A DNA stretch of 61,359 nt, filler included. It is 7 parts of 7 records of this genome, joined end to end, with 100 filler letters (N's around TTAATTAATTAA, not from the genome) between each part and the next. Parts side by side here need not be neighbours in the genome. Positions count along the whole stretch, not along the records: positions 33,289 to 48,043 come from SRR7504441_994; 6 more parts are not named here. The stretch is one strand, 5' to 3'. The translations under genes were made by a program, and so were the position numbers. The notes under the pieces are model-generated. The model searched no databases and had not been told where the DNA came from. It saw only the letters and a program-made list of their open reading frames with translations. Positions 20,761 to 51,100 of the stretch are shown here, one piece after another; position 1 is the stretch's first letter, and each line of letters begins with the position of its first letter.

Positions 20761-20784
20761 TACCTCTACAGGGGCTGGCTGGCC

Positions 20785-33188: not shown

Positions 33189-33288
33189 NNNNNNNNNNNN
33201 NNNNNNNNNNNNNNNNNNNNNNNNNNNNNNNNTTAATTAATTAANNNNNNNNNNNNNNNNNNNNNNNNNNNNNNNNNNNNNNNNNNNN
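33189..33288. other. Artificial contig spacer
   Basis: N44-TTAATTAATTAA-N44. Confidence 0.99.
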
Positions 33289-36200
33289 CAATTCATTCTG
33301 GAATCGAACAAAAGCTACCAGGATTACGGAGCTTAGTTCAAGGACTACACTCCATATTAAGGCACAATGTCTCTCTGAACTTACCTGATTGCCAAGAATG
33401 GTCTTCAAAACCGCTATCTGGCTTGGAAGGCCTAAACAGTAAGCTACCTGATCAAGGCTTCACAGCAGTTGTGCTCGCCAATATCAGGGGAGCAGCTGGT
33501 ATAAGCATAAGCATTGATGAGGAACTTACAGCCGCAGGAGTAGATTCCTTATCGACGATTGAACTCCGGGGAAATTTACAGCGTGATCTAGGCATTCAGT
33601 TGCCATCCACATTCAGTGTCGACTATCCCACTGTCCGAGAGCTAGTGGCTTTCCTGCAGTCTGTGCTTGCTGCTGGTTCAGTACCAGAGCAAACTAATAG
33701 ACTTGCGCCTGTTCTTATGCCCACTCCCTCCAATGACACAATTTCTGCTCAAACGGACGTGACAGCTGAAGCTGCTCCTGATGCTGGCGGCCGGGTTCAA
33801 GATGCTGCTTTGCTCTGGACGACCCTGTGCAACGCCAAGTGTCAAATGACCATGCAGAGTAGGCAGTACAGCATGGCCCGAATTCACAAACGAGCGGAGG
33901 AATTCATGAAGACTGTTCGGATACTGAGAGAGAGGCATTCCATACGCAGGACCAGTTGTGCCATTCCGTGCTTCTCATATGGCATCACAAAGAAGGATGC
34001 CAGTCTCTGCACAATCATGGGGCTCGCATGCCAACTGCCGTCTGAAGTCAACCAACCGCCTGAAATGTGGGCAGCTCTGTGTTCAGAAGAATGTTTCATT
34101 TGTAGAAGCGGACCCTCTCGCTGGCAGGATGCCTGTTCTCAGGCAAACACTTCGTCAAAGTTTGCAGGTGCATTCCTGGCAAATCTGCAGAGGACAACCT
34201 TGTCCTTGCTGGATTCAGGGTTGCCGGTAGATCCACACATACATGTCCTTCTTCAAGTCGTTGATCAAGCCATTTCTGAATCAGGCTGGGATTACAGATC
34301 CGCAAGAGAGTGCACCGGGGTCTTTACTGCTATTGACACAACCAGTCTGATCATTGAAATGCCGTCTTTTGCGGTGTCCAGGGCTGTTGCATCAGCGTTT
34401 TGCATTGAAAGTGCTTTTGCGTCCAACGTGTGCAACCTCGAAGCAGCTTGCTCTTCTGGCTATCTTGCCTCATGCGAGGCACTTAAGCATGTCACAAATG
34501 GGCTGTGTGAATACGCAATTCTTGGCGGAACAAATCTATTGCTAGAGCCAAGCAAATACTTGAGGACTTTTGAGGGCGGCCTAATCTCCCCAACAGGCAT
34601 TATGAGGCCATACGATGCTCATTCAGATGGGATTGTGATGGGAGAAGCTGCTGGCGCGATCATCTTCGAGAGAAGTAGGCAGTCTGTGAGTGCATATGGC
34701 GGGGTGCGAGGCTGGGCAACAACGCCGACAAGCCCATTACTACCAGTAGGCTGTACAGACCCTGCAGCCATAGCGAAGGTGGCAACTGCCGCACTTTTCA
34801 AAGCAGGTTTGCATCCAAAGCATCTTGCCCTTGTGCACATGCACGCGACGGGGAATTCGGCATGCGACTTACCTGAGGTTGCAGGCATTTTAGATGCATT
34901 AACCTCGACTGACCGAAATAACCCACCAGCTCTCACCAATCATAAGGCTACGTTTGGACACAGCTTGGATGCCGCCGGAATTGTAGCACTAGTGAGCACA
35001 ACAATGAATATGCAGCACAGGATGGTGCCAATTCATGTAAATATCATGAGCCTAGACAGTTTAATTCGATGTGAAACGACGATGTTGTTGCCATCCACAC
35101 ATGTACACCATTTCAAAAGCAATAGCTACTTTTGCGGAGGGATCAGCGGGACATCAGTGAGTGGGGACAACATACACCTGATACTGTGTAATACCGATTC
35201 AATTGCTGAAAGGGTGCATGTGACGACCAAATCATCAACAGCGCCCGCTGAAATTGTGCCAGAATGCACTCTCTCCACCACAGCACAAGCACCAATTTCT
35301 TCTCTGCAGCGGATTACTACAGCTCTGAAAGGGCTGTTCTGCACTTTGATGCCATGCGATCTACGAGATGTGAATGACGACGACGACTTGACACGGCTCT
35401 CATCTCGTAACATGGTCATTCTCTTGATGAAGCTTTCGAAACAGATAGACATGAGGCTGTCTATGACGCTCATCTTCAATCACCGAACGATTCGCGAGGC
35501 GGCTTTATTCATCAGTAATCAACTTACCGGCAAAGACGACCTGATAGAGCTCAAGCCGAGCATGGATGCACCCGGGGTGAGAGCGCCTCAGCAACTCAAG
35601 TTGGATCCAGATATCATTGCATCACTCGTGCATCAAACTGGTCGCACTGCAAATAATCATTCACTCTATAGTCGCATGGCTGGTCCATGTTTAGTCACAG
35701 GAGCGACAGGCTGCATTGGCCAGGAACTCTTCAATGAACTTCTGATTTCCCGGCAAACGAACGACAGAATCTATGTTTTGATTCGTGCAGCGGATAAGAT
35801 GACAGCCTATGAGCGGCTGAAGAGCGTGCTCAGCGACCGCCTCAGTCAGCTGCCAGATTGCGTCGTGCCAGTTGTGGGCGACGTATCTGCACCTAAATTT
35901 GGTGTAGCAAAGGAGCTGTACAACACCCTGGCCAAATGCGTGAAGGTCGTGTATCATTTCGCCGCCCAAGTAGACCACATTAGTCCATACGACAAGCTGG
36001 AGGAAGCCAATGTCGGCGGTGCCCTAAGTGTAATCCGTTTTGCTACCACAGGGTGCCTTAAGCATATCCATTTTGCATCCACTATTGCTACCACTGGTAT
36101 TGAGAATGGCATCACTAGTGATGACTGTCGTGGAGCACTGGACGACATGGAGACAGGCTACTCTCAGACGAAGTGGGTTGCTGAAAGTCTGATGTTGCAA

Positions 36201-38588
36201 GCAATGAAGCTCGGCGCCCCAATAATGGTGTATCGAATCGGTCTGGTCACCGGTCGGATGGACAATGCAGTTCACAGAAACCTGAATGATGTAGGATGCC
36301 GGTTTGTGAAGAGCTGCATCCAGGTTAGAAAGTTTCCTTGCCTCCTGGACCAGCGTGGAATCCCATTACCGTGCATACCGGTCGACCTCGCTGTGAAGGT
36401 AATCTGTTGGGTAGCACAGCATCCAAAAGAGGTTCATGGCCGTTGCATGAACATGGTCCATCCTTGCGCTTTTGACATGGCAGCTGTTCGAGACTCGCTT
36501 ACAGAATATGGCTACAGCATCACAGACTGCTCAATCGGAGAATGGTATGCAGAACTTCAGGATTCGGATTCAGATAATGCCATGCTTGAGTACATGCCGG
36601 CAGTCGACGAACGGATGAGTGAGTGGCTAATTGGGCCCGATAACCTGGAGACATGGCTAGAAGAGAAGACTGTCATCCAATGGGATTGTTCAGCCCTAAT
36701 GCACGTTTTGAGCCGAATGAGAATCCATTGCGATTCACTCGATTATTTGTTGCCTCGATATCTCGAATACTTCGTATCAATCGGGTTCTTGCCCCCACCA
36801 GATGGCCCAGGGGTTGCACCCAAGAGAAGATCAGCAGTTGTTCAAATATCACGCTACATAGCCAGTATACCAGCTAAGATGCGGAACATGCACACCACAG
36901 CAATTCTGAACTCGCTGCATTTCCGTCAAGCGCCAAGAGCTCCTCTTGCGCAGCAAATAAAGATTGCATCACTTGGTTCACTATATTGTCAGCATAATAA
37001 GGTATCAAAGCAAATTATTCAACACTTTCGCAATGTCCATGCAGACGGCCGTTACTTGTGGCCCCGGCACCGCACTGGTGGCATCATTCAAAGCGACATG
37101 GAAAAGCAGCTTTGTTATCCATTGAGTATCTCAAGAGCAAAGGACCAGTACATTTGGGACGAAGACAATAATCAGATGGTGGATCTCTTGATGGGCTATG
37201 GCGCCTGCTTTTATGGGCACTCGCCTGATTTCATAGCTGAACCAGTGGCTCAGAAAGTTATAAACGGGTTTGCTGTTGGTACTGATTTCAAATTAGCCGG
37301 CGAGGTAGCACAACTGATATGCAAATTGACTGGGATGCAACGGATCTTCTTCACCAACTCTGGCACAGAAGCAGTCATGGTTGCAATTAGGCTTGCTCGT
37401 TGCTACACTCTACGTCCAAAGGTGATACTATGTAATGGACACTATCATGGATGGTCTGATACCAGCCAGCATGTTGGTGCCTATTACCAAGGAATGGCTT
37501 CCGCACCTCTGGTTCGCGGTGTTCCCCCAGATGCATCTGTCCAAGTGGTCAACTTTGGATCCGACGAGGTTTTTGATTTACTACAAGAATCCGGGAACGG
37601 CGTGGCAGCAGTGATCGTAGAACCTGTGCCTGGAGGGAGCTGCGTGGTCGATCCGCAGTTCTTGATGAGATTGCGTGATGCATGTACCCAACATAACGTC
37701 CTTCTGATATTTGACGAGGTTTATCAAGGCTTTAGATGTCACGTTGGCGGCGCACAGGCTTACTTTGGTATCCGTGCAGATTTGGTGTCATATGGCAAAA
37801 TACCTGGTGGCGGCTACCCTTTTGGAGCTGTTGCTGGTTCGCATGATTTAATGAAGTATATTGACGGAGGGAACTACCAATTTGACGATGTGGATTCTAA
37901 GCCCGTACAGGGTGATATAACCTTTGTAGCTGGGACATTCTGCAAACATCCTATCATGCTGACAGCTGCATCTGCCATTCTCAAACGCTTTACTGAACGA
38001 GGTAATCGTGATCATCAGAAGCTGAACCAGAAAGTGAACCGCCTGTGTCTCAAAGCCAACAAGTTCTTTGCAAGCCACAATTTCCCAGTACACCTGGTGT
38101 GGTTTGCAACATCTGCAACTTTGGTGGGCAAGAACTCAGTCTCAGATGGCTATTCAGTCAACGACCCGAACTGCTATTTAGCCGAATTCTTTGCGCAATA
38201 TCTGCATGTGAAAGGGGTTTACGTACCAGACCATCTCAGGATGATATTCTCGGTTGCTCATAGCGATGCCGACTATGCCCATATTTTGAGTGCACTCACC
38301 TACGGAGCGTGTGAGCTCTTCTCTCCCCTTGGAGAGCTGAACACGCGGAGTTGTCTTCTTGGGAGTTTGACCTGGGAAGAGGTCGAAGATTGTGTTGTCA
38401 CACCAGACGATGAAATCGTAGCCAAGTTAGATGAACTCGTCCCGGATGTTCCAGAGCTGGATCCACCTAGGAGTCCAAACCGAGAAAGGAATCCCCCAGA
38501 GCCGGATATGACGAGAACTCCGAGTCCCTTGATATTGTGTGAGTACTCGTACGAAGACGATGTTAACACTACATCAGACGTCCCTTGA
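33289..38588 (+). CDS. Type I polyketide synthase, C-terminal part: ACP - KS - ACP-like - thioester reductase (R) - class III aminotransferase; 5'-truncated, intronless
   Basis: ACP GVDSLSTIELR..YPTVREL; KS triad EAACSSG / HMHATGN / KATFGHS; second ACP-like DDDLTRLSSRNMV..IFNHRTIRE; R domain LVTGATGCIG, VYHFAAQV, GYSQTKWVAE, YRIGLVTG; aminotransferase FTNSGTEA, YHGW, LIFDEVYQGFR, YGKIPGGG, AGTFCKHP. The frame is open from 33291 with no upstream stop. Confidence 0.92.
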
Positions 38589-39030
38589 TTAAGACATCTA
38601 TAAAGAGAAATATAATATAATAATGTCATGATTCTTAGAAGTCCCTACATGATGACATCTGATGTACGTAATACTCGTACTGTAAAAATTGAATGTTCCA
38701 CTGTAACAACGCATGCAACAACAATTAATTACGCACATGTACATGTATTAGCTTAGTACTAGGTTATTATGTGGGGCTCCGAAGTCCTTCTAAACTGTAC
38801 TTTATATACGCAGTGTACAGCAGTACTCGCGATCGTAGAGTACGTACAATCAATTGCAGCGATGTCACGAAGTATAAAGACAAACAATTTCAAATTCCAG
38901 CCTAGCTCCTGCCACGTACTGGCAGAGAACAAGAGCATCATTGACGCACATGAGATTGACTGCTTAATTGTTGGAAGTAGTTACTTACACTACATAGCCA
39001 GTACCGAGTAGCGTGACAATCACTCAGCAA

Positions 39031-39503
39031 TCACTCCTTCTTGTGGGGCGCGCTCTTGCCATCAAAGAGCAGAGCGACCGCGGCTAGGGCAGTGAGCACG
39101 ACGATCGGTATGGTATCTCTTTGCATTTTGTCGACCATCACCTGGCGACCGAGCCAGTCAGCCGCAGCGCCGGCCGGCATCGCACCGCCGGCAGCTGACC
39201 AGCCAGGATTTCGTGAGCCGAGTAGGAGATCATAATGCCGCCCCAGACCAGGGTCATTCTCAGCGCGAACTCCACGTAGCCATAGACCAGCGATAGAATG
39301 TTGAGCGCGGCCAGCAGGCACACGTAGCACCCGAGCGCTCGGCAGAGCAGGATGCACATCATCTGGGCGTCCGGCGAGGCCTCAGCGAAGAGTGGCGCGG
39401 GAAAGAACTCGTCCAGCGCCGCCCGCGTGTTCAGCGCGTACATCGGCCCCGACACCGAGAACAGCAGGGCGTTGATCCCGATTGACACGGTGCCGAGCTT
39501 CAT
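39031..39503 (-). CDS. Small four-TM membrane protein of unknown function; one 44-nt intron
   Basis: MKLGTVSIGINALLFSVSGPMYAL, CILLCRALGCYVCLLAALNILSLV, ...LPA|VMVDK..IPIVVLTALAAVALLF; intron GTGCGA...CTGAC...CCAG. Confidence 0.7.
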
Positions 39504-39511
39504 GCTCAATG

Positions 39512-39527
39512 CCGTTATTCGCAACGG
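39512..39527. promoter_or_regulatory. Pair of oppositely oriented YAACGG (Myb-type) motifs in a divergent promoter; example of a recurring element
   Basis: CCGTTA at 39512-39517 and CAACGG at 39522-39527; the same motif occurs upstream of genes at 7470, 21118, 26813, 32072, 41719, 43041, 44741 and 47362. Confidence 0.5.
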
Positions 39528-39608
39528 AAAGACAACTTCTACGTAAGCAGATCAGGGGTTGAAGAAGGATAGAAGAAGGAGCTGCTAGTGCATGTGGAAG
39601 AGTGTAAG

Positions 39609-39821
39609 ATGAAGCCGCCGGCCATTATAATGCCAGGCAGACGCAAGCGACTAGCAGCGCTGCACGAGGCAGCTGCGATCGCTAACAGGCCAATTACTTC
39701 TTTGTCAAAAGTGGAGCTCACGTCCAACCATGGTCCAACGCTTTTCAGCCACACCAAGTGCCGTGAGCAGTATGTGGGCAGAGATCGAGGTAACTGGTTC
39801 ACTAATTATAACGTAGGTTAG
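39609..39821 (+). CDS. Possible 70-aa small protein
   Basis: MKPPAIIMPGRRKRLAAL...; it fits the genome's pattern of a ~105-bp divergent spacer carrying YAACGG and converges on the GH35 gene. No recognisable motif. Confidence 0.3.
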   Translation: MKPPAIIMPGRRKRLAALHEAAAIANRPITSLSKVELTSNHGPTLFSHTKCREQYVGRDRGNWFTNYNVG

Positions 39822-39874
39822 TCACCGTCCCGCGGTCGACTCCGCACTCTTAATGAACATGCACCTCAACGTCC

Positions 39875-41713
39875 TCAAGCGTAGCTATAGTCGGGCTTAT
39901 CTTCTAGTCGGACGATTGCGCTCCGCGGTGCCTTGTCAAGTTCCAACACCAACAGCTCGTTGGTTCCGACTTGGAGAATAGGTCCTGGTACAAACAGTGC
40001 AAACTGTGGACCGATGGCCCAGTATCGCCCAAGAGGCTCACCGTTCACCCACACTCTGCCCTTGCTCCAGCCGCGCATGTTGACATAGGTGTCTGCCACC
40101 CTTTCAAGCACCTGGAAAGTGCCACGGAAGAAGACCGGAGGCTGTGGAGTAGCGCCACCAGTGCTGAATTGCAGCTGAGTGAGCTGGACAGTTTCCAAAG
40201 GGAGCGTCGACAGCTTCCAGCCGAGCAGCGGCTGTCCATCGATTGTCATGTTGCCCAGCCCCTTTGGGTCCCACATGTCGCCCTTCCCGACGTTGATCCG
40301 GCCTTCAAAGTCGATTATGATAGATAGCCTCTGGCCTCCCGCCGGCAGCTCTACTGGCACAGGGGCGGAGCGGTTCACAACTGCCACTCGCAGATCGTCC
40401 ACTAGCACGGTCGCGCGGTCGCGTGGGTAGTCTTCGAACGCGATGGTGCTCCCCGCAGGCCTCGGTCTCGTGTAGAGCGCCAGCCCGTACGACTGCCCCG
40501 CTTGCTCGACCATCCACGGGGCTCCGGTGCAAGCTTTAACCGAAGTGACCAGCGAGCTCAACCCAGCAAGCAGGCTGACAGACTCACGCAGCAGCACTGG
40601 CCCAAAGTCTCGCCGGGCCGGCAGCACTGGCTCTGCAGGGAGCGGGTCTGACGAGTGCTGTGCGAGCACTTGTCGAATAGCTGTAAACTTATCGCCATCG
40701 GTGCCTATGCCGTGCTCGCCACCCTCGGCGATTGGCGCGTTGAAATCATAGCTGGTCAGATCGGAGAGCAGCCCCGAATGCTTGCCGTTGGCCCCGGCCC
40801 ACCGACCACTCGTCCCGCCGTGGGCCATGTACATGTTGAAACTCGCACCGATCTGAAGGATTCCGTGCAGGCTCTGGGCGTACCTCGTGCCGTTGGTGCG
40901 GGTCAGTGGCACGCCCCAGTGTGACATTCCGCCCGAGTATGACTCGGAGACGAAGCAAGGCGCAGGACCCGGCCGATTGGCTTGCTCCTCGGCTGTGCAA
41001 TTGAGCACCATATCACCACTTACATAGACCGCGCCGCCCGTGAGGGTGCCAGAGCGCAGATTGATGCGATCTGTAGTGTATATGGCCACATCACCGAGCT
41101 CCTGCCTGGCAGAGGCCACCAAGTATTCGATATACTCTCGATCTTGCCTGCTGTTGACTGTATCGCCATACGCCGCGTACTCGTTCTCGACCTGCACCAT
41201 CACCACAGGCCCTCCCGACGAGTAAACCAGCGGCCTCACGCGCGGCAGCAACTCGCGTCGCCAGAATCGGTCCACTGCAGCCATGAACTGCGTGCTGTTG
41301 GTCCGCAGGTCCGCCGGCCCCAGTCGGCCGTCGAGCAGCCAGGCCGGCAGCCCGCCGAGGTCCCATTCGCCACACATATACGGCCCGGATCGGAGCAGCA
41401 CCAGCAGCCGGGCGCTCTGGGCGGCCAGCAGGAATTGCGTCAGGTTGCGCTGGCCGGAGAAGTCAGGCCGGCCCTCGGTCTCTTCGTGGAAGTTCCAAGG
41501 CACGTAGGTGGCCACCGCATTGAGGCCGAGCGCGCGCAGCCGCGCCAGCCGGTCTGGCCAGTAGTCAGGGTGCACGCGGCTGTAGTGCATCTCGCCCGAG
41601 CGGAGCTGCACAGGCTTGCCGTCGAGCACGAACTGGGTACCTGCCAGTACGAACGACCGGCCCGTCGAGACCTCAGCGGTACTGGCGAGCACCAGCGCCA
41701 GGAGGAGCCGCAT
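39875..41713 (-). CDS. GH35 beta-galactosidase (GLB1-like), secreted or lysosomal
   Basis: Signal MRLLLALVLASTA; SGEMHYSRV, GLNAVATYVPWNFHE, LRSGPYMCGEWDLGGLPAWL, GGPVVMVQVENEY, SESYSG, FNMYMAHGGT, LTSYDFNAPIAE, KGRVWVNG..LGRYWAIGPQ. Confidence 0.95.
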   Translation of the reverse strand: MRLLLALVLASTAEVSTGRSFVLAGTQFVLDGKPVQLRSGEMHYSRVHPDYWPDRLARLRALGLNAVATYVPWNFHEETEGRPDFSGQRNLTQFLLAAQSARLLVLLRSGPYMCGEWDLGGLPAWLLDGRLGPADLRTNSTQFMAAVDRFWRRELLPRVRPLVYSSGGPVVMVQVENEYAAYGDTVNSRQDREYIEYLVASARQELGDVAIYTTDRINLRSGTLTGGAVYVSGDMVLNCTAEEQANRPGPAPCFVSESYSGGMSHWGVPLTRTNGTRYAQSLHGILQIGASFNMYMAHGGTSGRWAGANGKHSGLLSDLTSYDFNAPIAEGGEHGIGTDGDKFTAIRQVLAQHSSDPLPAEPVLPARRDFGPVLLRESVSLLAGLSSLVTSVKACTGAPWMVEQAGQSYGLALYTRPRPAGSTIAFEDYPRDRATVLVDDLRVAVVNRSAPVPVELPAGGQRLSIIIDFEGRINVGKGDMWDPKGLGNMTIDGQPLLGWKLSTLPLETVQLTQLQFSTGGATPQPPVFFRGTFQVLERVADTYVNMRGWSKGRVWVNGEPLGRYWAIGPQFALFVPGPILQVGTNELLVLELDKAPRSAIVRLEDKPDYSYA

Positions 41714-41993
41714 TAGAACCGTTGCCCTCGGGCCGGACGGCGGCCAGGTACAGTCCGACCTGCGTGGCAGCAGGTCGCCTGGGCCGTCAGCTGGCCGTTA
41801 GATTGTAGCAAGTGTAGAGTCTAGGAGACGTACGAGTAGATCTACGTGTACGTGTATTTACCAAGTTTACTGCGTACGTACAGTACTTAGCTAGGGCAGT
41901 AACACGACATGGAGAGAGAGAGCCGGTTCAAATCTATTTAAACTTAGGATTTAAATCGAATTGAAGAGTTATGACACGTGGCTAATTGCCCCA

Positions 41994-43008
41994 CTAGGTA
42001 GTCGGCGTACATGGAGCGGGGCTGTTGAAATCATAGCTAGCGTCGCTCCACATGAGCTCGCGCTGGCTCAGCTCGACGCCCCGCTCGCACAGCTCGTGCA
42101 GCTCGCGTTGCAGTTGTAGCTCGCGAGCTACTCCCCGCCGGATCGCCTCGGTCCGCTGGCTGATCAGCTCTTCTTGGCTCTCTGGCGTGGGCACCCGATC
42201 AAGCTCATCGAGTAGCTGCTTCAGCTCTATGATAAGCTCGTTATCCGGTAACCGGGACAGCTCTGCTGCCCCGAACCCGCGAGCTGGGCCGGGCCCGGGC
42301 TGCGGCGGCGCGGCGGCTAGCCGTTGGTGCAGGATGAGCTCGAACAGCTCGACCGGAAGCTGGCTGATCTGTGCCCTTAGGTCCCGCCAGCGACAGCCGG
42401 GCCCCACCGCTGCCCGTCGCCACCGGGCAACCACACGCCGGGACAGCCAACGCTGGAGCGCGCGGTTGTCACCGGACCTAGTCGCCCGTTGCCACGCGAG
42501 CAGCCTCTTACGGCAACCTCGGTTCTCGGACCAGGCGGCAGCGAGTTGCCGGGCGCACCAGGCACCTCTAGCCCGGTACTGGCACACTCGCAGCCCGGCG
42601 ATCCCGCGGAGCAGCCCTGCCCCCGCTGCAGCAGCGCCGTGGCAGGGCGTCACCAGAGTTTTGCCAGAATGCGGTGGCCAGACCGATGGCTATCTCCGCT
42701 TGTACTGCCTCCCCCGCCTTGAACGGCACGTGCACCCTGGCTTCAACGGCGGCTGTTGAAGCCTCCAGTTCCTTCTTCAGCGAGTGAACAGTGTCGGTGG
42801 CCTTCCTGTCTGCTGCCTCCAGCTCCTGCTTCACTGACTGGACAGCCTCCAGTTGTCCCTGCCTGCCCATCGCCTGTCGGTACGCATCGATCATCACCCT
42901 CTTCGCGACGGCCACTTCCACCAGGGGCTGCGTCAAGGCGCCACTTTCGGCCGCAGCCGCAGCCTCGGTTAGCCGGGCGCGCCAAGCCCGCCCCGCGGCG
43001 CCGCTCAT
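41994..43008 (-). CDS. Hypothetical coiled-coil protein with Trp/Arg-spaced helical repeats; at least one 37-nt intron
   Basis: ORFs 42568-43059 and 41994-42653 join via GTGACG...GGGCAG; LEAVQSVKQELEAADRK and LIIELKQLLDELD heptads. Confidence 0.5.
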
Positions 43009-43164
43009 GGCCAGTGGCTGCTCAGCCTCTCTGCGTGAAACCGTTGCGGACAATCCCAAACCGTCGTTCGCAGGGAGTGCACCTCACTCGTCAGGGAGAG
43101 TGCAGCACACCCTAGCACTCACCTGCTCAGGCGGCCTTGTGGGGACGTCCGTGGCCTCGTGAAC

Positions 43165-43932
43165 ATGCCCGGGGCGCTCGCCTCCCCGGCCGGTAAGCCC
43201 GAGCTGTGGCTGGCCGGCCACCCAGCAGCTAGCCAGTTCTGCTCGTTGTCGACGGCGCTCTGCCTCTCCCTGGGCTACGCCGGGCTCTGCCTGGTCGGCA
43301 AGAAGGCCATGGAGTCGAGGGAGCCGATGGCGCTCAAGTCGCTCAAACTGGTGTACAACCTCACCCAAGTCGTCGTCTGTGCGACCACCTTCCTTCACCT
43401 TCTGCCGCTGATCACTTCGAGCCCGTACGGTGTAGGGACTGTGCCGACGGCCGAGTTCGAGAAATGGGTGTTTGTGTACTACTGCTGCAAGATCCTAGAC
43501 TTCGCCGACACGGCCTTCATGGTGCTGGGGAAGAAGCACAAGCAGGTCTCACTACTGCACGTCTGGCATCACGGCTCGATTGTCCCGCTGTTCGGCTACT
43601 ACTTATCGACCGGCCGCGGGGGTGGGATGATCGCACTACTGCCCCTCTTCAACTCGCTGATCCACGTGTTGATGTACGGGCACTATCTGGTTACTAGCTT
43701 TGTCAAGTTTGGCCCGAGGCACCCATACAACACACATTGGAAACCTCTGCTCACCGGCAGCCAGATGGGACATCACGTGCTTTGCATTATCTACATGCTG
43801 AGCAACTATGCAGCCGGCAACCCCGAGTGCACCTGGGGCGTGTGTAGTGCTGGAATAGCGTGGGGCTTGTCAATCTTGGGGCTGTTTGCGAAGTTCTATG
43901 TCGATTCCTACATGAATGGTAAACACAAATAA
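43165..43932 (+). CDS. ELO-family fatty-acid elongase (GNS1/SUR4), possibly a PUFA elongase
   Basis: VYNLTQV, YYCCKILDFADTAFMVLGKK..QVSLLHVWHH, FNSLIHVLMYGHY, WKPLLTGSQM, LFAKFYVDSY, C-terminal KHK. Confidence 0.95.
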   Translation: MPGALASPAGKPELWLAGHPAASQFCSLSTALCLSLGYAGLCLVGKKAMESREPMALKSLKLVYNLTQVVVCATTFLHLLPLITSSPYGVGTVPTAEFEKWVFVYYCCKILDFADTAFMVLGKKHKQVSLLHVWHHGSIVPLFGYYLSTGRGGGMIALLPLFNSLIHVLMYGHYLVTSFVKFGPRHPYNTHWKPLLTGSQMGHHVLCIIYMLSNYAAGNPECTWGVCSAGIAWGLSILGLFAKFYVDSYMNGKHK

Positions 43933-44157
43933 ACAATTGCATGTAATGTTATAATCGAACACCGACGCGCATCAGAAAATTGACTATTTATCCGAGCTTC
44001 ATCGTGCTGCTACTATATCGCCGGCTGGTCATGGTGCGTACATGGTACGCGTCGAGTGCAATATCTCTTTAATATAATAATCTAACATTACTATCAAAAT
44101 GCTGAGGGCCAGAGGTTGCTCTATATTTTCGGTCGGGTTATCGTCAGTTAGGTTGCC

Positions 44158-44705
44158 TCATAAGCTGCGCGGCTTCTTTCTATTGTGCCGTGAGAAGAGC
44201 CCACCCGCCTGCCGCCCCGGCTGGCCGCTCGGCCAGCTCAGTCCGGGCGCCTTCCTGGGCACTTTGCGCGGGCCGCTCTCGGTCGGGGCGGTGGCGGACT
44301 CCTCGTCGCTCTCCGCAAACTCCTCCATCGTCTCCTTGATCTTTTGCTGCCTTTCGCTCTCCCGCTGTGCCGCCAGGTGCCTGGCCTTCCGTTTCTTGTC
44401 CGCCTCATCACGCGCGCGCTGCCTCCAGCTGGCAGCCGCCCAGGCCGGGGGTCGCCTCCTGCCGCTCTGCCTCCTTGGCTGACCAGCGCTCGAACGAGGC
44501 CTCCTTGGCCTCCCTGATGACCTGCCGCCCGCCGGTGGGCGCCCGGTGGCCGAGGCCGCCACGCCTCCTTGTCCTCGTCCTTGAGGGTGCGGTTGTCCTT
44601 ATCCAGAAAGTCCGTGGTACCGCCCAACCCCTCGCCCGTCAGCTGGAAGTGCGTTGTCGGGTCCTCCGCCCCCTCTCCCGGACCCTGTCCGATCAGAAAC
44701 TCCAT
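44158..44705 (-). CDS. Small charged hypothetical protein; two GC-AG introns (44522-44564, 44419-44455)
   Basis: MEFLIGQG..LKDEDKE|VIREAKEASFERWSAKEAERQE|RARDEADKKRKARHLAAQRESERQQKIKETMEEF; the frame is continuous after these two splices. Confidence 0.6.
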
Positions 44706-44763
44706 GCGGGCGGCTCGACAGTGGGGCCAGTGGCGGATTCCAACGGAACCTCGTTCGGAGACG

Positions 44764-45957
44764 ATGGCTTTTGTGCATTTCCGCCCGCTTCTTGCCGTGC
44801 TGGTGTGCGTCGGACTGCTGGCCGGGGCGGCGCCGAGCGCCAGCGGCACTCCGCTCTACCTCGGCCCCGGCGGGTGCGATGTGTCTGACACCAAGTGCGT
44901 CCCACCCCCGCCGCTGGCCGCCCGGTCGATCGCCGGGTACAACTGGGACGGCCGGGCTGGGCTCCGGGCCATCGGCTCGTGGGACACCGGGGGCGCGCCG
45001 ACTTGGCTGCACCGGGCCGGCCAATGCCTGCTTGCCACCCTGTCGGACATCAACATGGTGGCAAGCTACCGGATTGGGTCCGGGGGCCAACTGGCCCTGG
45101 TCTCGAACGTGTCCTCGCTCGGAGTGAGCCCGGTCTACCTGGACAGCATAGGCAAGCTGGTGGTGACGGCCAACTACCACGGTCCCGACGACACCACCCA
45201 GCCTGCCGGGGCCGGGGTCGCATCTCTGCTCCTCCAGGACGACTGCCAGCTCGCCTCGGGCGCCGCGATCGGCATCCGAGGGAGCGGTCCGAACAAGGCC
45301 CGACAGGGGGCAAGCCACGTGCACAGCGTGGTTCTGGACCAGGCCGCCGGGCTGGACGTCGACGGGAAGGCGACCTTCTTCGCGTGCGACCTTGGAGGCG
45401 ATGCTGTGTACACGTTCAGCGCAGACGCGAGCAGCGGCAAGCTGGAGCAACGGTACAAGGCGGTGATGGCGGCTGGGAGCGGACCGCGGCACATCGCGGT
45501 GCACCCGTCGCTGCGCATGCTGTACGTGATCTACGAGATGGGCAATACGGTCACCGCGCACTCAATCAACGCGACCGGAGGACTCACACAGGTGCAGGGG
45601 CCCTTGCCAACAATCCACTTTTCGGGGTTTTCGAAAGCGGCGGAGATTCTCATCAGCCCGGACGGCGATGCGCTCTTTGCAACAAACCGCGGCTACAGTG
45701 GCGCAGCGGCCAACACCATTGCCACGTTCAGCATTGGCAGCGATGGCCGGCTCACAGCCAGTGGCTCGGTGAATTCGGGCGTGAGCTTCGGCCGGGGGGC
45801 TGAGCTGGCCCCGGGCGGCAAGAAGCTGCTGGTGGCTGGCCAGAGCTCGGGCAACTTGGTCTCACTGGACGTGCACGAGAGCAAGCTGGGCGAGGCGGTG
45901 GTGCTGGGCAGTGGCATGGCCACTCCGACCTCGATTGCGTTCGGGCCGAGCCCGTGA
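44764..45957 (+). CDS. Secreted beta-propeller lactonase (6-phosphogluconolactonase Pgl/YbhE, cycloisomerase-2 family)
   Basis: Signal MAFVHFRPLLAVLVCVGLLAGAAPS; VTANYHG, GSGPNKARQGASHVHSV, CDLGGDAV, GSGPRHIAVHP, YVIYEMGNTV, AEILISPDGDALFATNRG, LLVAGQSSG. Confidence 0.9.
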   Translation: MAFVHFRPLLAVLVCVGLLAGAAPSASGTPLYLGPGGCDVSDTKCVPPPPLAARSIAGYNWDGRAGLRAIGSWDTGGAPTWLHRAGQCLLATLSDINMVASYRIGSGGQLALVSNVSSLGVSPVYLDSIGKLVVTANYHGPDDTTQPAGAGVASLLLQDDCQLASGAAIGIRGSGPNKARQGASHVHSVVLDQAAGLDVDGKATFFACDLGGDAVYTFSADASSGKLEQRYKAVMAAGSGPRHIAVHPSLRMLYVIYEMGNTVTAHSINATGGLTQVQGPLPTIHFSGFSKAAEILISPDGDALFATNRGYSGAAANTIATFSIGSDGRLTASGSVNSGVSFGRGAELAPGGKKLLVAGQSSGNLVSLDVHESKLGEAVVLGSGMATPTSIAFGPSP

Positions 45958-46189
45958 GCATTTTTCACCACCGGATGGCACGCACGGCAAGCTTCTCCAC
46001 GGCGTCTTCGTTCATTTGTAGTAGATACTGATCCTAATATTGATCGCACATGTGGCATGCATGCCATGATGCATGCAGTATCAATAAAACGAGTTACAAA
46101 TACGTAGAAGTAAGTTGTACTCGTATTAAGGCTTGTGAAGCCGTAAATGAGGGCATTGCCGAAGTGACGCCATATTTATTTAGAGGCAC

Positions 46190-47316
46190 TCAAGCAGGAT
46201 CATATCTTCGAACGCATATCATAGTCCTTTCACAACTAGTGTTCCCGAAAAGCCAAACCACCCTAAAGCGCTCAAACCAAGGCTCCAGAATCGCCTGGGT
46301 GTCCTCGGCCCACTTCTGCACCCCAGCTAACGGCAGCCGCTTGGGCAGTTTCATTGTGAGTACCAGCGGCGAGCCCGGCTCTAGAATTTCGGCCAGCGGA
46401 ACCAGCATGTCCCTGGCCGTGTCCCGCGGATCGCGGTTCACGTCGCACACAAGCAGCGTGGCCCTCGGCAGCCCGGCCACCTCTTGCGCCGGCAGTTGCA
46501 CGTGCGTCACGTTCTCTAGCCCCGCCACATCGGGGTGCAGCTCGCCGGGATCGATCGCAGTGACCAGCTCGAACCCCTCTGTCTGCGCCAGGAACCTTGT
46601 CCACCCGCCTGGGGCCGCCCCCACGTCCACGGCGTGCTGCCGCACAATCTGCCGCCCAGCTCGCGAGGCGGGCTGGCTGAGGGGCACCGGAGCGCCCTCT
46701 TGCTGCAGGCTTTGCATAGCCTCCCGCATCTTATACTCGGCATGGTTCAGCCCGACCAGACCGGCAGCCGGAGCCCGCTGACCGGCCATGCAGTGCTGCT
46801 CGTACTGGGCCGCGGTCCAGACGCCCACGGCCCAGCACTCAGGCCCAACCTCGTGCAGCGGTATCAAGCTGAGGATATGCTCAAACGACTGCGGCGCCAG
46901 GCTAGCCGCGCAGCTCGCAAGCAGCCCGGATTCTTCCATCCAGTCCTGGATCCGCTCCTGCAGCTGCCGGGTGTCGCAGTGCACTCGGATCCTCGAACCG
47001 TGCAGCCGACCGCGCAGCTCGGCTTCCACCACCTGCGCCGGCTCAGCTCACAGCCGGCAGACTCGCACGCCTGCTCCATACTGCCACTGACCCGACGGTC
47101 GCACGCGAGCAGCTTCGTGCACGTGCGTGAGAACCCGGCGCGCTGGCTCAGCTCGGCGAGGACGGCCAGGGGGCATTCGCCGGTGCTGGCCCACACAAAG
47201 CTTTGCTCCGGCCGGGTGGTGACTCGGCTGAGGGCCGGAGATGCCGCCAGGAAGGTGTGGTACCGGGCGGTGCAGTTCGGCACCGATAGCACGCCGATAC
47301 AGCCCGACTGCTCCAT
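46190..47316 (-). CDS. FtsJ/RrmJ-fold 2'-O-ribose methyltransferase (RlmM/YgdE-like); GC-AG intron 47033-47070
   Basis: AEYKMREA, AVDVGAAPGGWT, VTAIDPGEL, LLVCDVN, VLTMKLP, FGNTSCERT supply the K-D-K-E tetrad. Confidence 0.85.
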
Positions 47317-47415
47317 TGGGTTGCACCCGCGTTCCGGACTTCGACGCCCGGTTCGCTACATCCGTTATCGCGATCGCAGCTGCAAAGCCATTTTGGTCGG
47401 GGACCCGAGGCAAGC

Positions 47416-48043
47416 ATGGACAGATTGATGACCGCAGTCAACCAGGCGTGCACTTGGGTGGCCGGGCCTGCGAGCGGGCTGTGGCCAGGCGGACGAGCCT
47501 GCGGTGCGCCGGCTGCTCGAGGGTGGGCTGTCGGTGGCTGGGCAGCTGCCGGCGGACCAGGAGAGGCTCGGCCATGGCCAAACTGCTGGTGCGGGCTTTC
47601 TGGCCTGGCGGGGTAAGTGCTGGTGAGGTGAGCGAGTTTGGGGCCGATCCTTCCATTACTAAGAACTGGGGAGATAGCGTGCTGCACTGGGCAGCGGCCG
47701 AGGGACAGCCCCGTATGGTATGGCTGCCGGCCGACAAACTGGAGCTGAGAGCAGGTGAGAATGCTGGTCGAAGAGCTAGGAGCCGACCCAAATCTGCCCA
47801 ACCAATCGGGAATGACCCCGGTGGCCCAAGACCACGGCTGGGCTGACCGGGTCAGGTGCACACTGCGGCCTACTACGGCCAATTTGAAGCGCTGCGGGTG
47901 CTCGTGGATGAATTGGGGGGCGACCTGAGTGCCAGGCAACGTCCAAGGAGGCGGGTCTGAGTGGTCAGAACAGGACGCATGCTGGTTGCTCACCATTAGA
48001 CATGAGCTTGATCGAGGACCCGGAGGACGCTGCGCTTAACCAG
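47416..48043 (+). CDS. Ankyrin-repeat protein, multi-exon, probably 3'-truncated
   Basis: MDRLMTAVNQ|ADEPAVRRLLE, EFGADPSITKNWGDSVLHWAAAEGQ, VHTAAYYGQFEALRVLVDELGGDLSAR. Confidence 0.75.
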
Positions 48044-48143
48044 NNNNNNNNNNNNNNNNNNNNNNNNNNNNNNNNNNNNNNNNNNNNTTAATTAATTAAN
48101 NNNNNNNNNNNNNNNNNNNNNNNNNNNNNNNNNNNNNNNNNNN
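48044..48143. other. Artificial contig spacer
   Basis: N44-TTAATTAATTAA-N44. Confidence 0.99.
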
Positions 48144-51100
48144 CCCGGATGAGGGCTGGCAGACCCCGTCAGAGCTGGTAGCAGCTCAATCCAGCGAGCA
48201 GGACAGCCGAGTGGCTCAGCTGCAGGCAGGAGCCGCCCAGAGCAAGCATGCGGCCAGAGTGGCGGAGCTGGAGGCCGAGCTGAGCATGGCTGAGCTGAAG
48301 CACAGCACCAGCATCCAGCAGCTCCGGCTCCAGTTCGCGGAGGTCGAGAAGGATTACGAGCTCCGACTGGACCGGCTCCAACGGGCACAACAGACCGGGA
48401 CGGAGGCTTATGACGTCACTTTGGGAGACTTGAGCGCGACTGAGGACCGGCTGCGCAAGCTCAACGAGGAACTGGCCCAGACCCAGCGGCAGATGCTCGC
48501 CACGCCGGAGAAGCACAAGCGGAGGGCGCTCCGGCGGCGGTGCAAGGAGCTGGACTTGCTGCTAGGGAACGAGCACGAGGAGTACCGCGAGCGGAAGAGC
48601 GGCTCGCGCTCCAGCACGCCAGTGAGCTCGCCGGTGCACTCGAGGTCAGTCTCCCCTGCCAAACCGTCCCCGAGCAAGCTCTTAAAGGCCTCGGACTCGA
48701 TCCGATCCGAGCCAGAGCGCGAGGAGCCGGCGAGTGCGGCGGCTGGGCCTCTTGAACTGGAAGCAGCGATGAACAATCTCGAATCGGAGCTGGCTGGCGG
48801 GCTCCAGAAGGACGTTGAGTGGACCAGCCGGCTGGAGGAGCTGGAGCACGTGGTGTGTGTGCTCAGAGAGCAACTAAGCAGGGCCGCCCAGATAGAAGCA
48901 TGCCTGAAGGAGGAGCTCCAGACCGCGCTCCAGCAGTCAGTTGGCATGACAGCGGACGCGGGCAAGATCAAGCAGCTCGAAGTGTCCCTTTCTGAAGAGC
49001 GGGACAGGTCAGCGGGGCTTGAGCGCGAGTTGGATGCGTTGCTGGACCATGTGCAGGATGCTTTGGACAAGGAGTGCGTGGAGAAGGGCGAGCTGCACAA
49101 GAGCTTGGCAGACAAATCTGGGCTCATCCAAAAATTGGAGCAAACTGTCGAACTGAGCGAATCTAGGCATGTGCAACGGGCCCGCGAGGACGAGCGGCGT
49201 ATACACGATCTCGAGGACGCCCTGCTCAAGATGACGGAACAGAATGATCGGCTGCAGGTTGAGCAGCGGCAGCAGGGCAAGAGAGACAAGTCTGAGTTCG
49301 AGGGGACGCTCAGGCTGAACCAGGAGGCGCTGGCTCACGCAGCGTGCACATCAGACCAAGCAGCAGCCGAGCTGGCGGCCATGGAGGCCGAGCATGCTGC
49401 AGTGGCAGCCCGACACAGCGCGCAGGTGGACGGACTCTTGCTCCAACTCAAGCAGTCGCGAGAAGAGAAGGAGAATTCGCTGTTGGACTTGAGTGGCGAG
49501 AAGGAGGATGCCGAGCAGCTTCGCTTGGATCTGAAGGAGAGCCGAGCGGCTTTGGATGCGCAGACACAGAGAGTGCGGCAACTGGAGGGGACTGTTGCTG
49601 ATATGGAAGCTAAGTACGGAGGGTCGCTCGACACGGCGAGTACTAAGGCGGAGCTGCGGGATCAAGTCATTGTTCAGCTCCAGGAGCAGTTGAGCGCTTC
49701 AGAGAAGATGAAAGACGGCTTGAAGACAGAATTGCAGCGGATGCTCGAGGAGTCGATGTCATCCGAAGTCAAGCGTTCGTCTGATGTGAGTCAACTAGAG
49801 ACAATCAAGGCCGAGCTCGAATCCAAGCTGCATACAATGGACGGTCGCGTGCAGGAAGCGCTGGCCAAAGAGGCTGAGTTGTTGAACGAGGTGGCGACTA
49901 GAGACGAGGCACTCCTCCTCTCATCAAGTAGGGTGAGTCAGCTGGAGCAGATGGTGGCTGCCAGGGAGGCACAGCTCTCGTCTCAGGCGAGCGACGACAG
50001 ATTGCTTGTGCAGGCCCTGCAGCAGGAGCTGAGCCAAGCGCAAGAGGAGCAGAAGAGGCTAGTCACGGCTGCGCACGGCGATAAGCATCAGATGACCAAG
50101 GAGAAGTACGAGTTCAAGGAAAAGGCGCTGATCAAAGAGGAGGCCCTCGCCCAGGCTTCGGCCAGAGTTGGCGAGCTTGAGCAAGCAATCACTATCATGG
50201 AAGCCAGCTTTACTTCCAAGTTGAGTGAGGAGCGGCGCCGAGCGCAAGAGCTCGAGGCCAACTTGAGCCGCGTGACAGAGGAGAAGCAGGCTGCAATCGA
50301 CCAGAAGCAGAGCGCTCTGATGGAGCTCTCTGGGCAGCTTCACGGGGAGAAGGCCGAGCTAGAAACCCGTCTCAGCGAGCTCGAATCGGAGCTCGCCAAA
50401 TCTCGTGGCCAGAATGACGAACTGGCAGCGGCAAATCCGATTCACGAGCAGCGGCTGGCTGAGCGGGAGTGTCGTGTGCGCGAGCTCGAAGCCGAGAACA
50501 GAGACCTGTGTGAGAAGGCGAAGCTGGCGATTGGAGTGCAGGATGGGCTGAAGCAGGAGCTGAAGGAGGCCTGGAATCGCACCGTGTCCTTGCAAGCTGA
50601 CCAGGATGGCCAAACTGAGCATCTCCGCCAGGACCTGGCAGAGGCAATGCGAGTGGCAAACGAGTTCAAGATGCAGCTGGACCGTAGGATGGACGCTGAG
50701 AAAGAGGCGTCTCTGCAGGCCAAGAGCGAGCTCAAACACGCCACTGACAAGACCGAGACGCAGCAGGCTGAATTTGAGAGCTTGCTCGCAACAGAGCGGG
50801 CGCGTGTGGCGACTCTTGAGCAAGATGCCAGCCGGCTCGCTTCTGAGGTTGCACGGCTGAAAGCGTCGAGTGTCAAGAATCTGGAGTGGGCCAAGCACGA
50901 GATCTCGGACAGGGATGAGGCCCTGGTGGCCGCAGCCAGCAAACAGGCAGCTGCGGCCAGCAAGGAGGCCGAGCTATCAGATGCGCTGGCAGCAGCAGAG
51001 GGCAGGTTTGCAGCTCGGCTGGAAGAGCAGCAGAGCCACCTCTTGGCACTCGAGCAGGAGCTGCACGGATCCAAACTGGCGTGCATGTCCGAGCAGGAGC

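Follow-up and report, generated by a model that had tools for sequence, protein, structure and literature searches.

A PKS polypeptide, probably eukaryotic, that ends in a fused thioester reductase and aminotransferase

The chemistry of thioester reduction and transamination is well known. PigE of the prodigiosin pathway in Serratia is described as carrying an N-terminal thioester reductase and a C-terminal class-III transaminase and as converting a thioester via the aldehyde to the amine (PMC8341465). PtTamH of the tambjamine YP1 pathway, also a natural fusion of transaminase and thioester reductase, is reported to form an amine from an acyl chain bound to ACP (PMC9594044). CpkC of the coelimycin pathway is described as a type I PKS with an SDR-type reductase as its last domain, whose aldehyde product is transaminated (PMC5365063); in this and related actinobacterial routes, the transaminase is a separate protein (CpkG). 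The zeamine (Zmn10-14) and fabclavine (FclC-G) pathways are reported to use an aminotransferase (AMT) in a PKS-like system with an NADH thioester reductase; beta-keto thioesters are aminated, and the chain is reductively released and then transaminated (PMC5811116, PMC9113149). Among eukaryotes, TgPKS2 of Toxoplasma is described as a type I PKS with a terminal KS-TR (bioRxiv 10.1101/2023.05.23.541938), and PKZILLA-2 of Prymnesium as a trans-AT-type line with six in-line MycA-like AMTs that ends in a TE (bioRxiv 10.1101/2024.01.29.577497). The accounts cited here describe neither of these two proteins as combining a thioester reductase (R) and an AMT.

The window analyzed here, a stretch of 61,359 nucleotides joined from contigs, contains a PKS frame with the domain order ACP, ketosynthase (KS), atypical ACP, SDR-type R and class-III AMT. 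All its parts are members of known families. Undescribed so far are a PKS polypeptide that terminates in fused R and AMT, and the occurrence of this fusion in eukaryotes. This arrangement should yield a nitrogen-bearing polyketide. According to its published description, PigE shares the pairing of reductase and class-III transaminase but is a stand-alone two-domain protein without PKS domains, and its transaminase belongs to the terminal-alkylamine type (PMC8341465); compared on that basis, it is a functional analogue and not a homologue of the fusion. PtTamH differs in having the transaminase before the reductase, an AAR-like reductase and an omega-transaminase, and in being a stand-alone bacterial enzyme (PMC9594044). 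The reductase in the window belongs to NAD_binding_4/TIGR01746 and is thus set apart from the PigE/TamH family, by published features rather than by sequences. CpkC and its relatives differ in their separate transaminase and in being bacterial, and the zeamine and fabclavine systems in their separate reductase and their iterative, PUFA-synthase-like, bacterial synthase. The earlier note on this DNA had held that routes combining an R domain with a transaminase use a stand-alone transaminase; this statement was too strong, since the fused reductase-transaminases PigE and TamH have already been characterized (PMC8341465, PMC9594044).

Domain composition of the PKS fragment

The target contig spans positions 33289-48043, base 33289 being its first base, and is preceded by an artificial spacer found six times in the window. 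The PKS frame begins at the N's of this spacer, with the first whole codon at 33291 and the stop codon at 38586-38588, and its stop-free product has 1765 aa. The first Met is aa 143. Because the contig end cuts the frame and ACP1 precedes this Met, the gene is 5'-truncated. The domain calls of the earlier note (ACP 33460-33670, KS 34010-35190, ACP-like 35310-35525, R 35690-36800, AMT 37110-38310) were reproduced with Pfam and NCBIfam, and the catalytic residues that it had described as intact were found as motifs in KS, R and AMT (Table 1).

Table 1. Features of the PKS frame and its surroundings, in positions of the window
Feature	Position	Residues	Strand	Basis
Artificial 100-base spacer (44 N, TTAATTAATTAA, 44 N) between two contigs	33189..33288		.	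Sequence inspection
PKS ORF, 5'-truncated, intronless, open at contig start	33291..38588		+	Stop-to-stop frame
ACP1, carrier of the preceding module	33486..33656	aa 66-122	+	Pfam PP-binding, 43.9 bits, E 3e-11
Ketosynthase	34014..35045	aa 242-585	+	Pfam ketoacyl-synt 86.1 bits, Ketoacyl-synt_C 61.1 bits
ACP2, atypical carrier domain	35322..35507	aa 678-739	+	Pfam PP-binding, 28.7 bits, E 1.6e-6, cut-off 20.8
SDR-type thioester reductase including C-terminal substrate subdomain	35691..36791	aa 801-1167	+	NCBIfam TIGR01746
R-AMT linker and AMT N-terminal extension	36792..37115		+	Alignment; conserved in two eukaryotic homologues
Class-III PLP aminotransferase, in-line MycA type	37116..38300	aa 1276-1670	+	NCBIfam GSA-aminomutase-like models
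Acidic, Pro-rich C-terminal tail, no family match, unconserved in homologues	38301..38585		+	
Convergent neighbor, small membrane protein gene, spliced	38788..39507		-	RNA contigs

Searching the 1765 aa with Pfam gave no match to the AT (Acyl_transf_1), KR, DH, ER, C or TE families at E <= 0.01. The earlier description of an AT-less PKS therefore holds for the part visible on the contig, and for that part only. An AT may lie upstream, because the 5' end of the gene is cut by the contig end; a single N-terminal AT has been reported for haptophyte PKSs (PMC7073580). A scan of 35 further ORFs, out of 75 with a length of at least 170 aa, returned no AT or PPTase match.

Motif reading places Ser86 of ACP1 within GVDSL. 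Both Pfam models of the KS score above their cut-offs, and the triad is intact (Cys387 in ACSSG, His518 in HATGN, His557 in FGHS), so that by fold and Cys-His-His residues the domain would count as an elongating ketosynthase of a type I PKS. It is divergent, with 22-30% identity to any fetched KS (BLAST). It is followed by neither an AT nor a KS-AT linker domain, and only about 90 aa separate it from ACP2. In place of the G-x-(D/H)-S-L of carrier proteins, ACP2 reads RLSSRN; the candidate attachment residue, S705, fits only in a gapless register read by eye, and the MAFFT alignment is one column off. We infer, with reserve, that the KS is active and that ACP2 is used. The opposite case, in which ACP2 is not phosphopantetheinylated or the KS is non-elongating, would accord with the atypical ACP2 motif, with the low KS scores and with the reported in vitro inactivity of the terminal KS that precedes the TR in the apicomplexan TgPKS2 (bioRxiv 10.1101/2023.05.23.541938). 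Against it, homologues with 58-71% identity keep all catalytic residues. Taken jointly with a mis-assembled contig, which is considered below, an inactive module is improbable.

The R domain scores 214.4 bits against TIGR01746 (cut-off, 213.35) and matches Pfam NAD_binding_4 at aa 802-1038 (E 2.3e-50). Its motifs, GATGCIG (804-810), Thr931, and Tyr957 with Lys961, align to TGATGFLG, ST and YxxxK of MxaA, and the match to the MxaA structure 4u7w (E 1.2e-37) covers residues 5-375 of 380. Score, nucleotide motif, Thr/Tyr/Lys residues and substrate subdomain all point to an SDR-type thioester reductase. The corresponding triad of TgTR is described as Asn-Tyr-Lys, versus Thr-Tyr-Lys here.

The AMT matches Pfam Aminotran_3 at aa 1277-1569 (E 1.5e-43) and contains Asp1475 and Lys1503 (in YGKIPGGG). 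Its best solved match is the aminotransferase domain of MycA (6kfm; E 1.4e-75, 258 bits, 444 residues), which bears out the earlier suggestion of a likeness to the embedded MycA/McyE type. This match covers the whole domain including the N-terminal extension, which aligns from residue 17 of 6kfm and is conserved in the eukaryotic homologues; both the Asp and the PLP Lys are present, the latter aligning with the Lys of MycA YGKIIGGG. The best GSA aminomutase reached 168 bits, and the omega-transaminases among the matches listed reached at most 81 bits. With its class-III fold, its PLP Lys and its closest relatives MycA, ItuA and McyE, the domain is assigned to the in-line MycA type. In MycA, ItuA, McyE and puwainaphycin-type modules, as here, the module of the AMT contains KS and ACP but no KR; the position of the AMT differs, since the MycA-type AMT directly follows the ACP and precedes a C domain, whereas here R intervenes and the AMT ends the protein. 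An identity with HemL (glutamate-1-semialdehyde aminomutase) was rejected, the score against TIGR00713 (225.5 bits) being far under the cut-off of 527.3. The GntE model of NCBIfam gave a clear match (2.3e-49). GntE acts on an aldehyde.

Relatives of the reductase-aminotransferase fusion

The R-AMT junction was also found in two homologous fragments (P0001 and P0002; eukaryote or environmental), the 58-71% identical homologues mentioned above. The junction is hence no assembly artifact, which answers the concern about a chimera raised in the earlier note so far as it touched this junction, and all three eukaryotic sequences keep R ahead of the AMT.

Searching 1.84 billion representatives with the AMT yielded 30,680 proteins at E <= 0.001, and the best 150 of these, with lengths of 552 to 6,958 residues, were examined (BLAST). 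The AMT stood before a C domain in 98 of them, before R in 6 and after R in 2; another 19 had it at the C-terminal end, 23 were classed as other, and 2 were mixed, the 19 and the 23 being rows without a context call. Among the fetched proteins, 122 of 187 AMT matches preceded a C domain, in agreement with the normal placement that the earlier note had given for embedded AMTs. It had also taken the architecture to be rare, and with two cases of R then AMT among the best 150 of 30,680 matches, one of them myxobacterial, the order is indeed rare but not unique.

Uncharacterized bacterial modules share adjacent PP-binding, NAD_binding_4 and Aminotran_3 domains with the PKS of the window. Six bacterial proteins (P0125, P0127, P0128, P0130, P0131 and P0179; P0127 is from a Streptomyces) have the AMT directly followed by R at the protein end. 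In the long ones, P0125, P0127, P0130 and P0131, the last module reads KS-...-AMT-R without AT or KR, the same domain set as in the window with the last two domains swapped. P0129 (Minicystis MAG) has ACP-R-AMT, the order of the window. The AMT domains of these bacterial AMT-R and R-AMT proteins are 35-40% identical to that of the window, and the literature search on such modules returned no paper.

The AMTs of the bacterial AMT-R proteins form one clade (SH-aLRT 100), as do their R domains (SH-aLRT 99). The eukaryotic AMTs form a clade of their own with a stem of 1.47 changes per column, and the stem of the eukaryotic R clade is comparable (1.04). P0129 lies outside the eukaryotic clade in both trees; a single origin of P0129 and the eukaryotic fusion would nevertheless not be contradicted by strongly supported branches. 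It is somewhat doubtful that marine protists hold their own lineage of R-AMT termination modules, fused independently of the bacterial ones, in which the aldehyde passes straight from R to AMT. If they do, the polyketide would leave as a primary amine. No other PKS would have offered an in-line "release and aminate" didomain before, and such modules would be a candidate origin for the terminal amines found in algal polyketides. Should ACP-R-AMT work alone, it would be a compact, self-contained unit that makes amines or amino alcohols from acyl chains bound to a carrier, and a sequence handle for finding producers of amino-polyketides in marine plankton data.

Amination and release of the chain

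We tentatively regard the polypeptide as the final module of a larger type I PKS of a marine microbial eukaryote, in which beta-amination precedes reductive release. ACP1 would hand over a chain built upstream, and the KS would condense it with malonyl-ACP2, ACP2 having been loaded by an AT whose coding sequence lies further upstream or elsewhere. Because KR, DH and ER are absent from the module, ACP2 would bear a beta-keto thioester, and the AMT would be offered exactly the substrate of the MycA type. The AMT would then aminate this, with the chain still bound to ACP2, to the beta-amino thioester. Using NAD(P)H, R would free the chain as a 3-amino aldehyde or, if it reduced a second time, as a 3-amino alcohol. 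The order of R and AMT in the polypeptide says nothing of the order of the reactions, because both follow their ACP. Sequence alone fixes no site of amination; we infer site, order of steps and number of hydride transfers from domain content, and beta-amination is slightly favored because the AMT is closest to the MycA type, whose domains aminate beta-keto thioesters bound to ACP, and no other beta-processing domain is present in the module. Beta-keto amination by such AMT domains is described for the PKS-like systems of zeamine and fabclavine (PMC5811116, PMC9113149) and has been proposed for the haptophyte PKZILLA-2 (bioRxiv 10.1101/2024.01.29.577497).

Several observations count against beta-amination: R precedes the AMT in the three eukaryotic sequences, as in PigE; the AMT matches GntE; the attachment motif of ACP2 is atypical and the KS very divergent; and the bacterial AMT-R modules are uncharacterized in the literature searched. 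Beta-amino aldehydes are chemically labile. The long stem of the AMT clade could mean a changed substrate.

A slightly less probable reading is that R first frees the chain as an aldehyde and that the fused AMT transaminates the free or channeled aldehyde to a terminal primary amine, as in the routes of PigE, TamH and CpkC-TR/CpkG. This would give a polyketide 1-amine, 3-oxo unless processed in trans. In the window, P0001 and P0002, R comes before the AMT, which fits this reading, as PigE, with the same order, is reported to perform both steps (PMC8341465), and TamH to couple both within one protein (PMC9594044); this argument loses its force because bacterial modules of the same domain set have the AMT before R. 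Thioester reduction with transamination is described as general in actinobacterial polyketide alkaloids (PMC5365063), but the characterized aldehyde transaminases of such routes are omega-transaminases, which score far under MycA here. The PigE and TamH reductases, moreover, are described as acyl-ACP-reductase-like with a catalytic Cys and not as SDR-type (PMC8341465, PMC9594044). The affinity of the AMT to the MycA type leaves an aldehyde substrate possible, because the zeamine AMT, which has been likened to those of mycosubtilin and microcystin, is proposed to aminate a released aldehyde (PMC5811116). The AMT is also GSA-aminomutase-like, and GluTR is reported to pass its aldehyde directly to GSAM (PMC8341465). 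The long stem of the AMT clade is in line with aldehyde amination. Counting against it, release ahead of amination would produce a reactive 3-oxo aldehyde, because the module lacks a KR. Thus the earlier proposal, release as an aldehyde with amination in cis, is one of two readings; beta-keto amination fits at least as well, because of the missing beta-processing domains, the family affinity of the AMT and the bacterial KS-ACP-AMT-R modules.

It is very improbable that the AMT aminates both the beta-keto thioester and the aldehyde after release, which would give a 1,3-diamine end. The domain set permits this, and both activities have been proposed for one AMT domain, that of Zmn12 in zeamine assembly (PMC5811116); the dual role is itself only a proposal in that precedent.

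Host and gene context

The eukaryotic origin of the PKS is well supported. In codon use, the PKS agrees with a gene for a dynein heavy chain that lies on a different contig of the window (r 0.63), so the owner is a eukaryote whether or not the contig is correctly joined. A mis-assembled join to GC-rich neighbors from another organism, the second form of the improbable misreading mentioned above, would fit the PKS GC of 0.49 and GC3 of 0.48 versus GC3 of 0.69-0.84 in seven GC-rich genes, of which three lie on the target contig and four on other contigs of the window. Codon use of these genes is uncorrelated with that of the PKS (r from -0.09 to 0.25), and no contig among four runs crosses 38585-38787. 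The architecture is independent of the neighbors, however, because it lies inside one uninterrupted frame, and in three runs (X1, X2 and X4) parts of the PKS and parts of the neighbors are both covered by contigs with at least 95% identity. The convergent neighboring gene contains a 44-nt GT-AG intron at about 39142-39185, with the same joint in RNA contigs of three runs (X2, X3 and X4), and this spliced gene marks that side of the contig as eukaryotic.

Domain organization and catalytic residues

Analysis of the polyketide synthase (PKS) frame with Pfam revealed two acyl carrier domains (ACP1 and ACP2), a ketosynthase (KS), an SDR-type thioester reductase (R) and a class III PLP aminotransferase (AMT), and no further Pfam family at E <= 0.01 within the 1765 residues of the protein (see the table below). 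Ketoreductase, dehydratase and enoylreductase domains were all absent from the visible PKS module. The frame begins at the very first base of contig 33289-48043 and runs from the preceding spacer to a stop codon at 38586-38588, with residues counted from 33291. Because it is open to the contig end and ACP1 lies upstream of the first methionine (residue 143), the gene is 5'-truncated. The claim of the earlier note that the synthase has no AT domain therefore holds for the visible part only, where none was found in 1765 residues. Among the 75 window ORFs of >=170 aa, 35 were scanned with Pfam and gave no match to an AT or a PPTase; the 40 ORFs left out were overlapping or antisense frames.

Motif reading revealed the attachment residue of ACP1 (Ser86), the complete KS triad (Cys387, His518 and His557), the R motifs GATGCIG, Thr931, Tyr957 and Lys961, and the AMT catalytic residues Asp1475 and Lys1503. 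In ACP2, RLSSRN stands in place of the carrier-protein motif G-x-(D/H)-S-L; S705 occupies the attachment position in the gapless register and lies one column off in the MAFFT alignment. The R domain narrowly exceeded the curated cut-off for the TIGR01746 thioester-reductase model (214.4 versus 213.35; aa 801-1167; NCBIfam). Its alignment to the MxaA reductase of known structure (E 1.2e-37) spanned the full length of R, C-terminal substrate subdomain included, and brought the motifs into register. A nonreductive R* (Dieckmann) domain was ruled out, since the tyrosine, the lysine and the nucleotide motif of R are intact. The AMT matched glutamate-1-semialdehyde aminomutase models over aa 1276-1670 (NCBIfam), with scores so far under their cut-offs, that of HemL included, that HemL itself was ruled out. 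An AlphaFold2 model of R-AMT, generated from a 4-row alignment, was unusable (mean pLDDT, 40.6). The domain architecture described in the earlier note, including its intact Cys-His-His triad, was thus confirmed by Pfam, NCBIfam and motif reading, and its coordinates lay within a few dozen bases of the Pfam and NCBIfam placements.

Features of the PKS protein and of the window (aa, residues of the PKS protein; other positions are nucleotides of the window)
Feature	Position	Strand	Remarks
ACP1, PP-binding	aa 66-122		Pfam
KS, ketoacyl-synt N and C	aa 242-585		Pfam
ACP2, second PP-binding domain	aa 678-739		28.7 bits, E 1.6e-6, cut-off 20.8, scanned alone
R, NAD_binding_4	aa 802-1038		Pfam, E 2.3e-50
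AMT, Aminotran_3	aa 1277-1569		Pfam, E 1.5e-43
Dynein heavy chain motor region	175-6975	-	2267 aa, intron-free frame open at contig end
DDX60-type PIN-like domain and helicase C-terminal domain	15281-20784	-	two adjacent frames
Small membrane-protein gene	38788-39507	-	convergent with PKS, 200 bases past PKS stop
GH35 beta-galactosidase	39878-41797	-	signal-like N-terminus
ELO fatty-acid elongase	43039-43929	+
Lactonase-type seven-bladed propeller	44521-45954	+
FtsJ-like methyltransferase	46193-47047	-
Open frame	48145-51927	+	1261 aa, no Pfam match; GC and AT skew of the contig strongly positive
Spacers	6977-7076, 20785-20884, 33189-33288, 48044-48143, 52127-52226, 56751-56850		44 N, TTAATTAATTAA, 44 N

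Integrity of the R-AMT junction and origin of the gene

The stretch that holds the R-AMT junction (36843-37444) was covered by no contig of the four public sequencing runs compared with the window. A search with R-AMT as the query returned two proteins with both families among the 120 matches listed, from 305. P0001 (851 aa) derives from a transcriptome record of a eukaryote, labelled Telonema subtile, and P0002 (845 aa) is encoded on a 3668-bp environmental contig. Both begin inside the reductase and continue via a linker into the aminotransferase, in the order found in the PKS. Their identity to the window PKS is 58-61% in R and 70-71% in AMT; every catalytic residue that they cover is retained, and the N-terminal extension of the AMT is conserved too. 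These independent homologous sequences indicate that the junction is real and, since they share it, that the fusion is a trait of a small family present in at least three different organisms. Searches for full-length relatives among proteins of 970-3089 aa and 3090-5000 aa gave single-domain matches only, none covering more than about 36% of the query. One scan of metagenome contigs gave a single weak locus, an R-domain match with 28% identity. The ESM Atlas contained no cluster at 0.9; the best, at 0.83, was a bacterial SDR-aminotransferase cluster of a different kind.

Six identical 100-base spacers divide the window into seven artificially joined contigs, so genes on either side of a spacer are not neighbours. 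Within the PKS contig, the small membrane-protein gene contains a GC-rich GT-AG intron of 44 nt on the minus strand (about 39142-39185), and these 44 bases are missing from RNA contigs of three runs, which come from two studies. Relative to the window, two of these three runs carry a 7-base insertion (GTACCTG) after 38976. The GH35, ELO, propeller and FtsJ-like genes each form a single frame with a GC content of >0.58. These genes lie in the right-hand part of the contig, which is eukaryotic. The join between the PKS and its neighbour (38585-38787) was bridged by no contig of the four public runs, so a mis-join could lie at that site. Taken as a whole, we consider it unlikely that the locus is inactive or misassembled.

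The PKS has a GC content of 0.49 and a GC3 of 0.48. The dynein heavy chain gene (GC, 0.49; GC3, 0.52) is the sole other gene of the window with such composition and codon use (r 0.63 with the PKS). Seven GC-rich genes, three on the PKS contig and four elsewhere in the window, have GC3 values of 0.69-0.84, and their codon use is essentially uncorrelated with that of the PKS. Two metatranscriptome runs, including a poly(A)-selected one, yielded contigs 95-100% identical to parts of R and AMT, and both runs also contain the spliced neighbour gene. One DNA run contains pieces of the PKS together with pieces of the GH35 gene, and the closest bacterial proteins reach about 30-42% identity at most in any PKS domain. 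The dynein-like codon use, the RNA and DNA contigs and the low bacterial identity argue that the PKS is eukaryotic whether or not the neighbour join is genuine. Bacterial contamination as its source was rejected, in part because of the codon use shared with a eukaryotic dynein gene.

The genes of the window thus fall into two codon-usage classes, the PKS and dynein genes (GC3, 0.48-0.52) versus the seven others (0.69-0.84). Possible causes are a genome of mixed composition, a compartment low in GC, or the presence of two organisms in a single assembly or bin. The two adjacent DDX60-type frames probably belong to one DDX60-like helicase gene that an intron or a frame change interrupts.

Related architectures and published systems

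The frequency of this domain order, which the earlier note had left to a survey of architectures, was assessed among AMT homologues (30,680 proteins at E <= 0.001; HMMER, 1.84 billion cluster representatives); the context of the best 150 of these was determined by local BLAST. In 98 of the 150, AMT was followed by a C domain, and in 6 directly by R; AMT stood at the C-terminal end in 19, and the rest were other (23) or mixed (2). R preceded AMT in two, P0002 and P0129, the latter a partial ACP-R-AMT protein from a Minicystis MAG. The R-then-AMT order thus appears rare among the closest relatives, i.e., the best 150 of 30,680. The six proteins with AMT directly before R (P0125, P0127, P0128, P0130, P0131 and P0179) are bacterial hybrid synthases ending in AMT-R, for which no publication was found. 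In the four long ones, the last module is KS-...-AMT-R without AT or KR; the order in P0127 (Streptomyces) is C-A-PCP-KS-AT-KR-ACP-KS-ACP-AMT-R. Pfam scanning of 15 of the 16 proteins with two matching stretches (the sixteenth was too long) revealed, besides P0129 and the six AMT-R proteins, six with AMT, a C domain, further modules and R at the far end, and two with tandem AMTs without R. P0121, of 1065 aa, from a record labelled Trimastix marina transcriptome, is made up solely of two MycA-like aminotransferase domains in tandem; P0122 likewise has two AMT domains in a row.

The AMT tree comprised the query, all 9 proteins with R beside AMT, 32 random AMT-before-C proteins and 18 others; the R tree was built without P0002, whose R match is <250 aa. 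The three eukaryotic AMTs grouped together as one clade (SH-aLRT, 100) whose stem is long (1.47). The AMT-R group was a single clade in both trees, and P0129 was placed elsewhere among bacterial sequences in both; the eukaryotic R lineage sits in a polytomy. These were quick IQ-TREE analyses with no outgroup and a long-branch warning, and the origin is not readable from either. On these trees, the R-then-AMT order probably arose more than once, a single origin being also compatible with the strongly supported branches.

The earlier note took such routes to rely on a stand-alone transaminase, a premise that is incomplete, since single-polypeptide fusions have been described. PigE is described as performing thioester reduction and aldehyde transamination in one polypeptide, reductase first (PMC8341465), and PtTamH as performing both steps in one protein with the opposite domain order (PMC9594044). 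As published, both pair an acyl-ACP-reductase-like domain bearing a catalytic Cys with an omega-transaminase, whereas the window PKS pairs an SDR with a MycA-type domain; on these descriptions they are analogues, not relatives, of R-AMT. Among eukaryotic synthases, PKZILLA-2 of Prymnesium is reported to have six in-line AMT domains and a TE at the end (bioRxiv 10.1101/2024.01.29.577497), and TgPKS2 of Toxoplasma to end in KS-TR, with the TR active and the terminal KS inactive in vitro (bioRxiv 10.1101/2023.05.23.541938). No published description of a PKS ending in R-AMT or AMT-R was found for any organism in a search that most subscription journals lay outside, and this silence is weak evidence of absence. 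The fusion has bacterial counterparts that are uncharacterised, and functional analogues that have been characterised; what appears to be new, as judged from domain assignments, is a eukaryotic, PKS-embedded fusion of a predicted SDR thioester reductase with an aminotransferase of the in-line type.

Amination before or after release

After the last condensation, ACP2 would bear a beta-keto thioester. We tentatively prefer a reading in which AMT would act on this thioester as the beta-processing domain of the module, as in MycA, and R would then free the chain as a 3-amino aldehyde or alcohol. This preference is based on the score of AMT, which is much nearer to the ACP-dependent domain of MycA (258 bits) than to aminomutases (168) or omega-transaminases (<=81), and on the module, which would supply the exact MycA substrate. 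A further basis is that, in bacterial terminal modules composed of the same domains, AMT stands before R, which shows that the two post-ACP domains can exchange places.

The proposal of the earlier note, aldehyde release by R followed by amination in cis to a terminal amine, is a credible but slightly less probable alternative, ranked second. It agrees with the conserved R-then-AMT order, with the PigE precedent as described (PMC8341465) and with the long branch that leads to the eukaryotic AMTs, but the AMT is MycA-like and far from omega-transaminases. Published accounts of zeamine and fabclavine describe both chemistries: an AMT domain, likened to those of mycosubtilin and microcystin, aminates beta-keto thioesters, and a separate thioester reductase releases the chain, after which the aldehyde is transaminated (PMC5811116, PMC9113149). 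For zeamine, one AMT domain was proposed for both aminations (PMC5811116, PMC9113149). Its proposed acceptance of an aldehyde also speaks for amination after release (PMC5811116). That the AMT of the window performs both aminations is considered very improbable.
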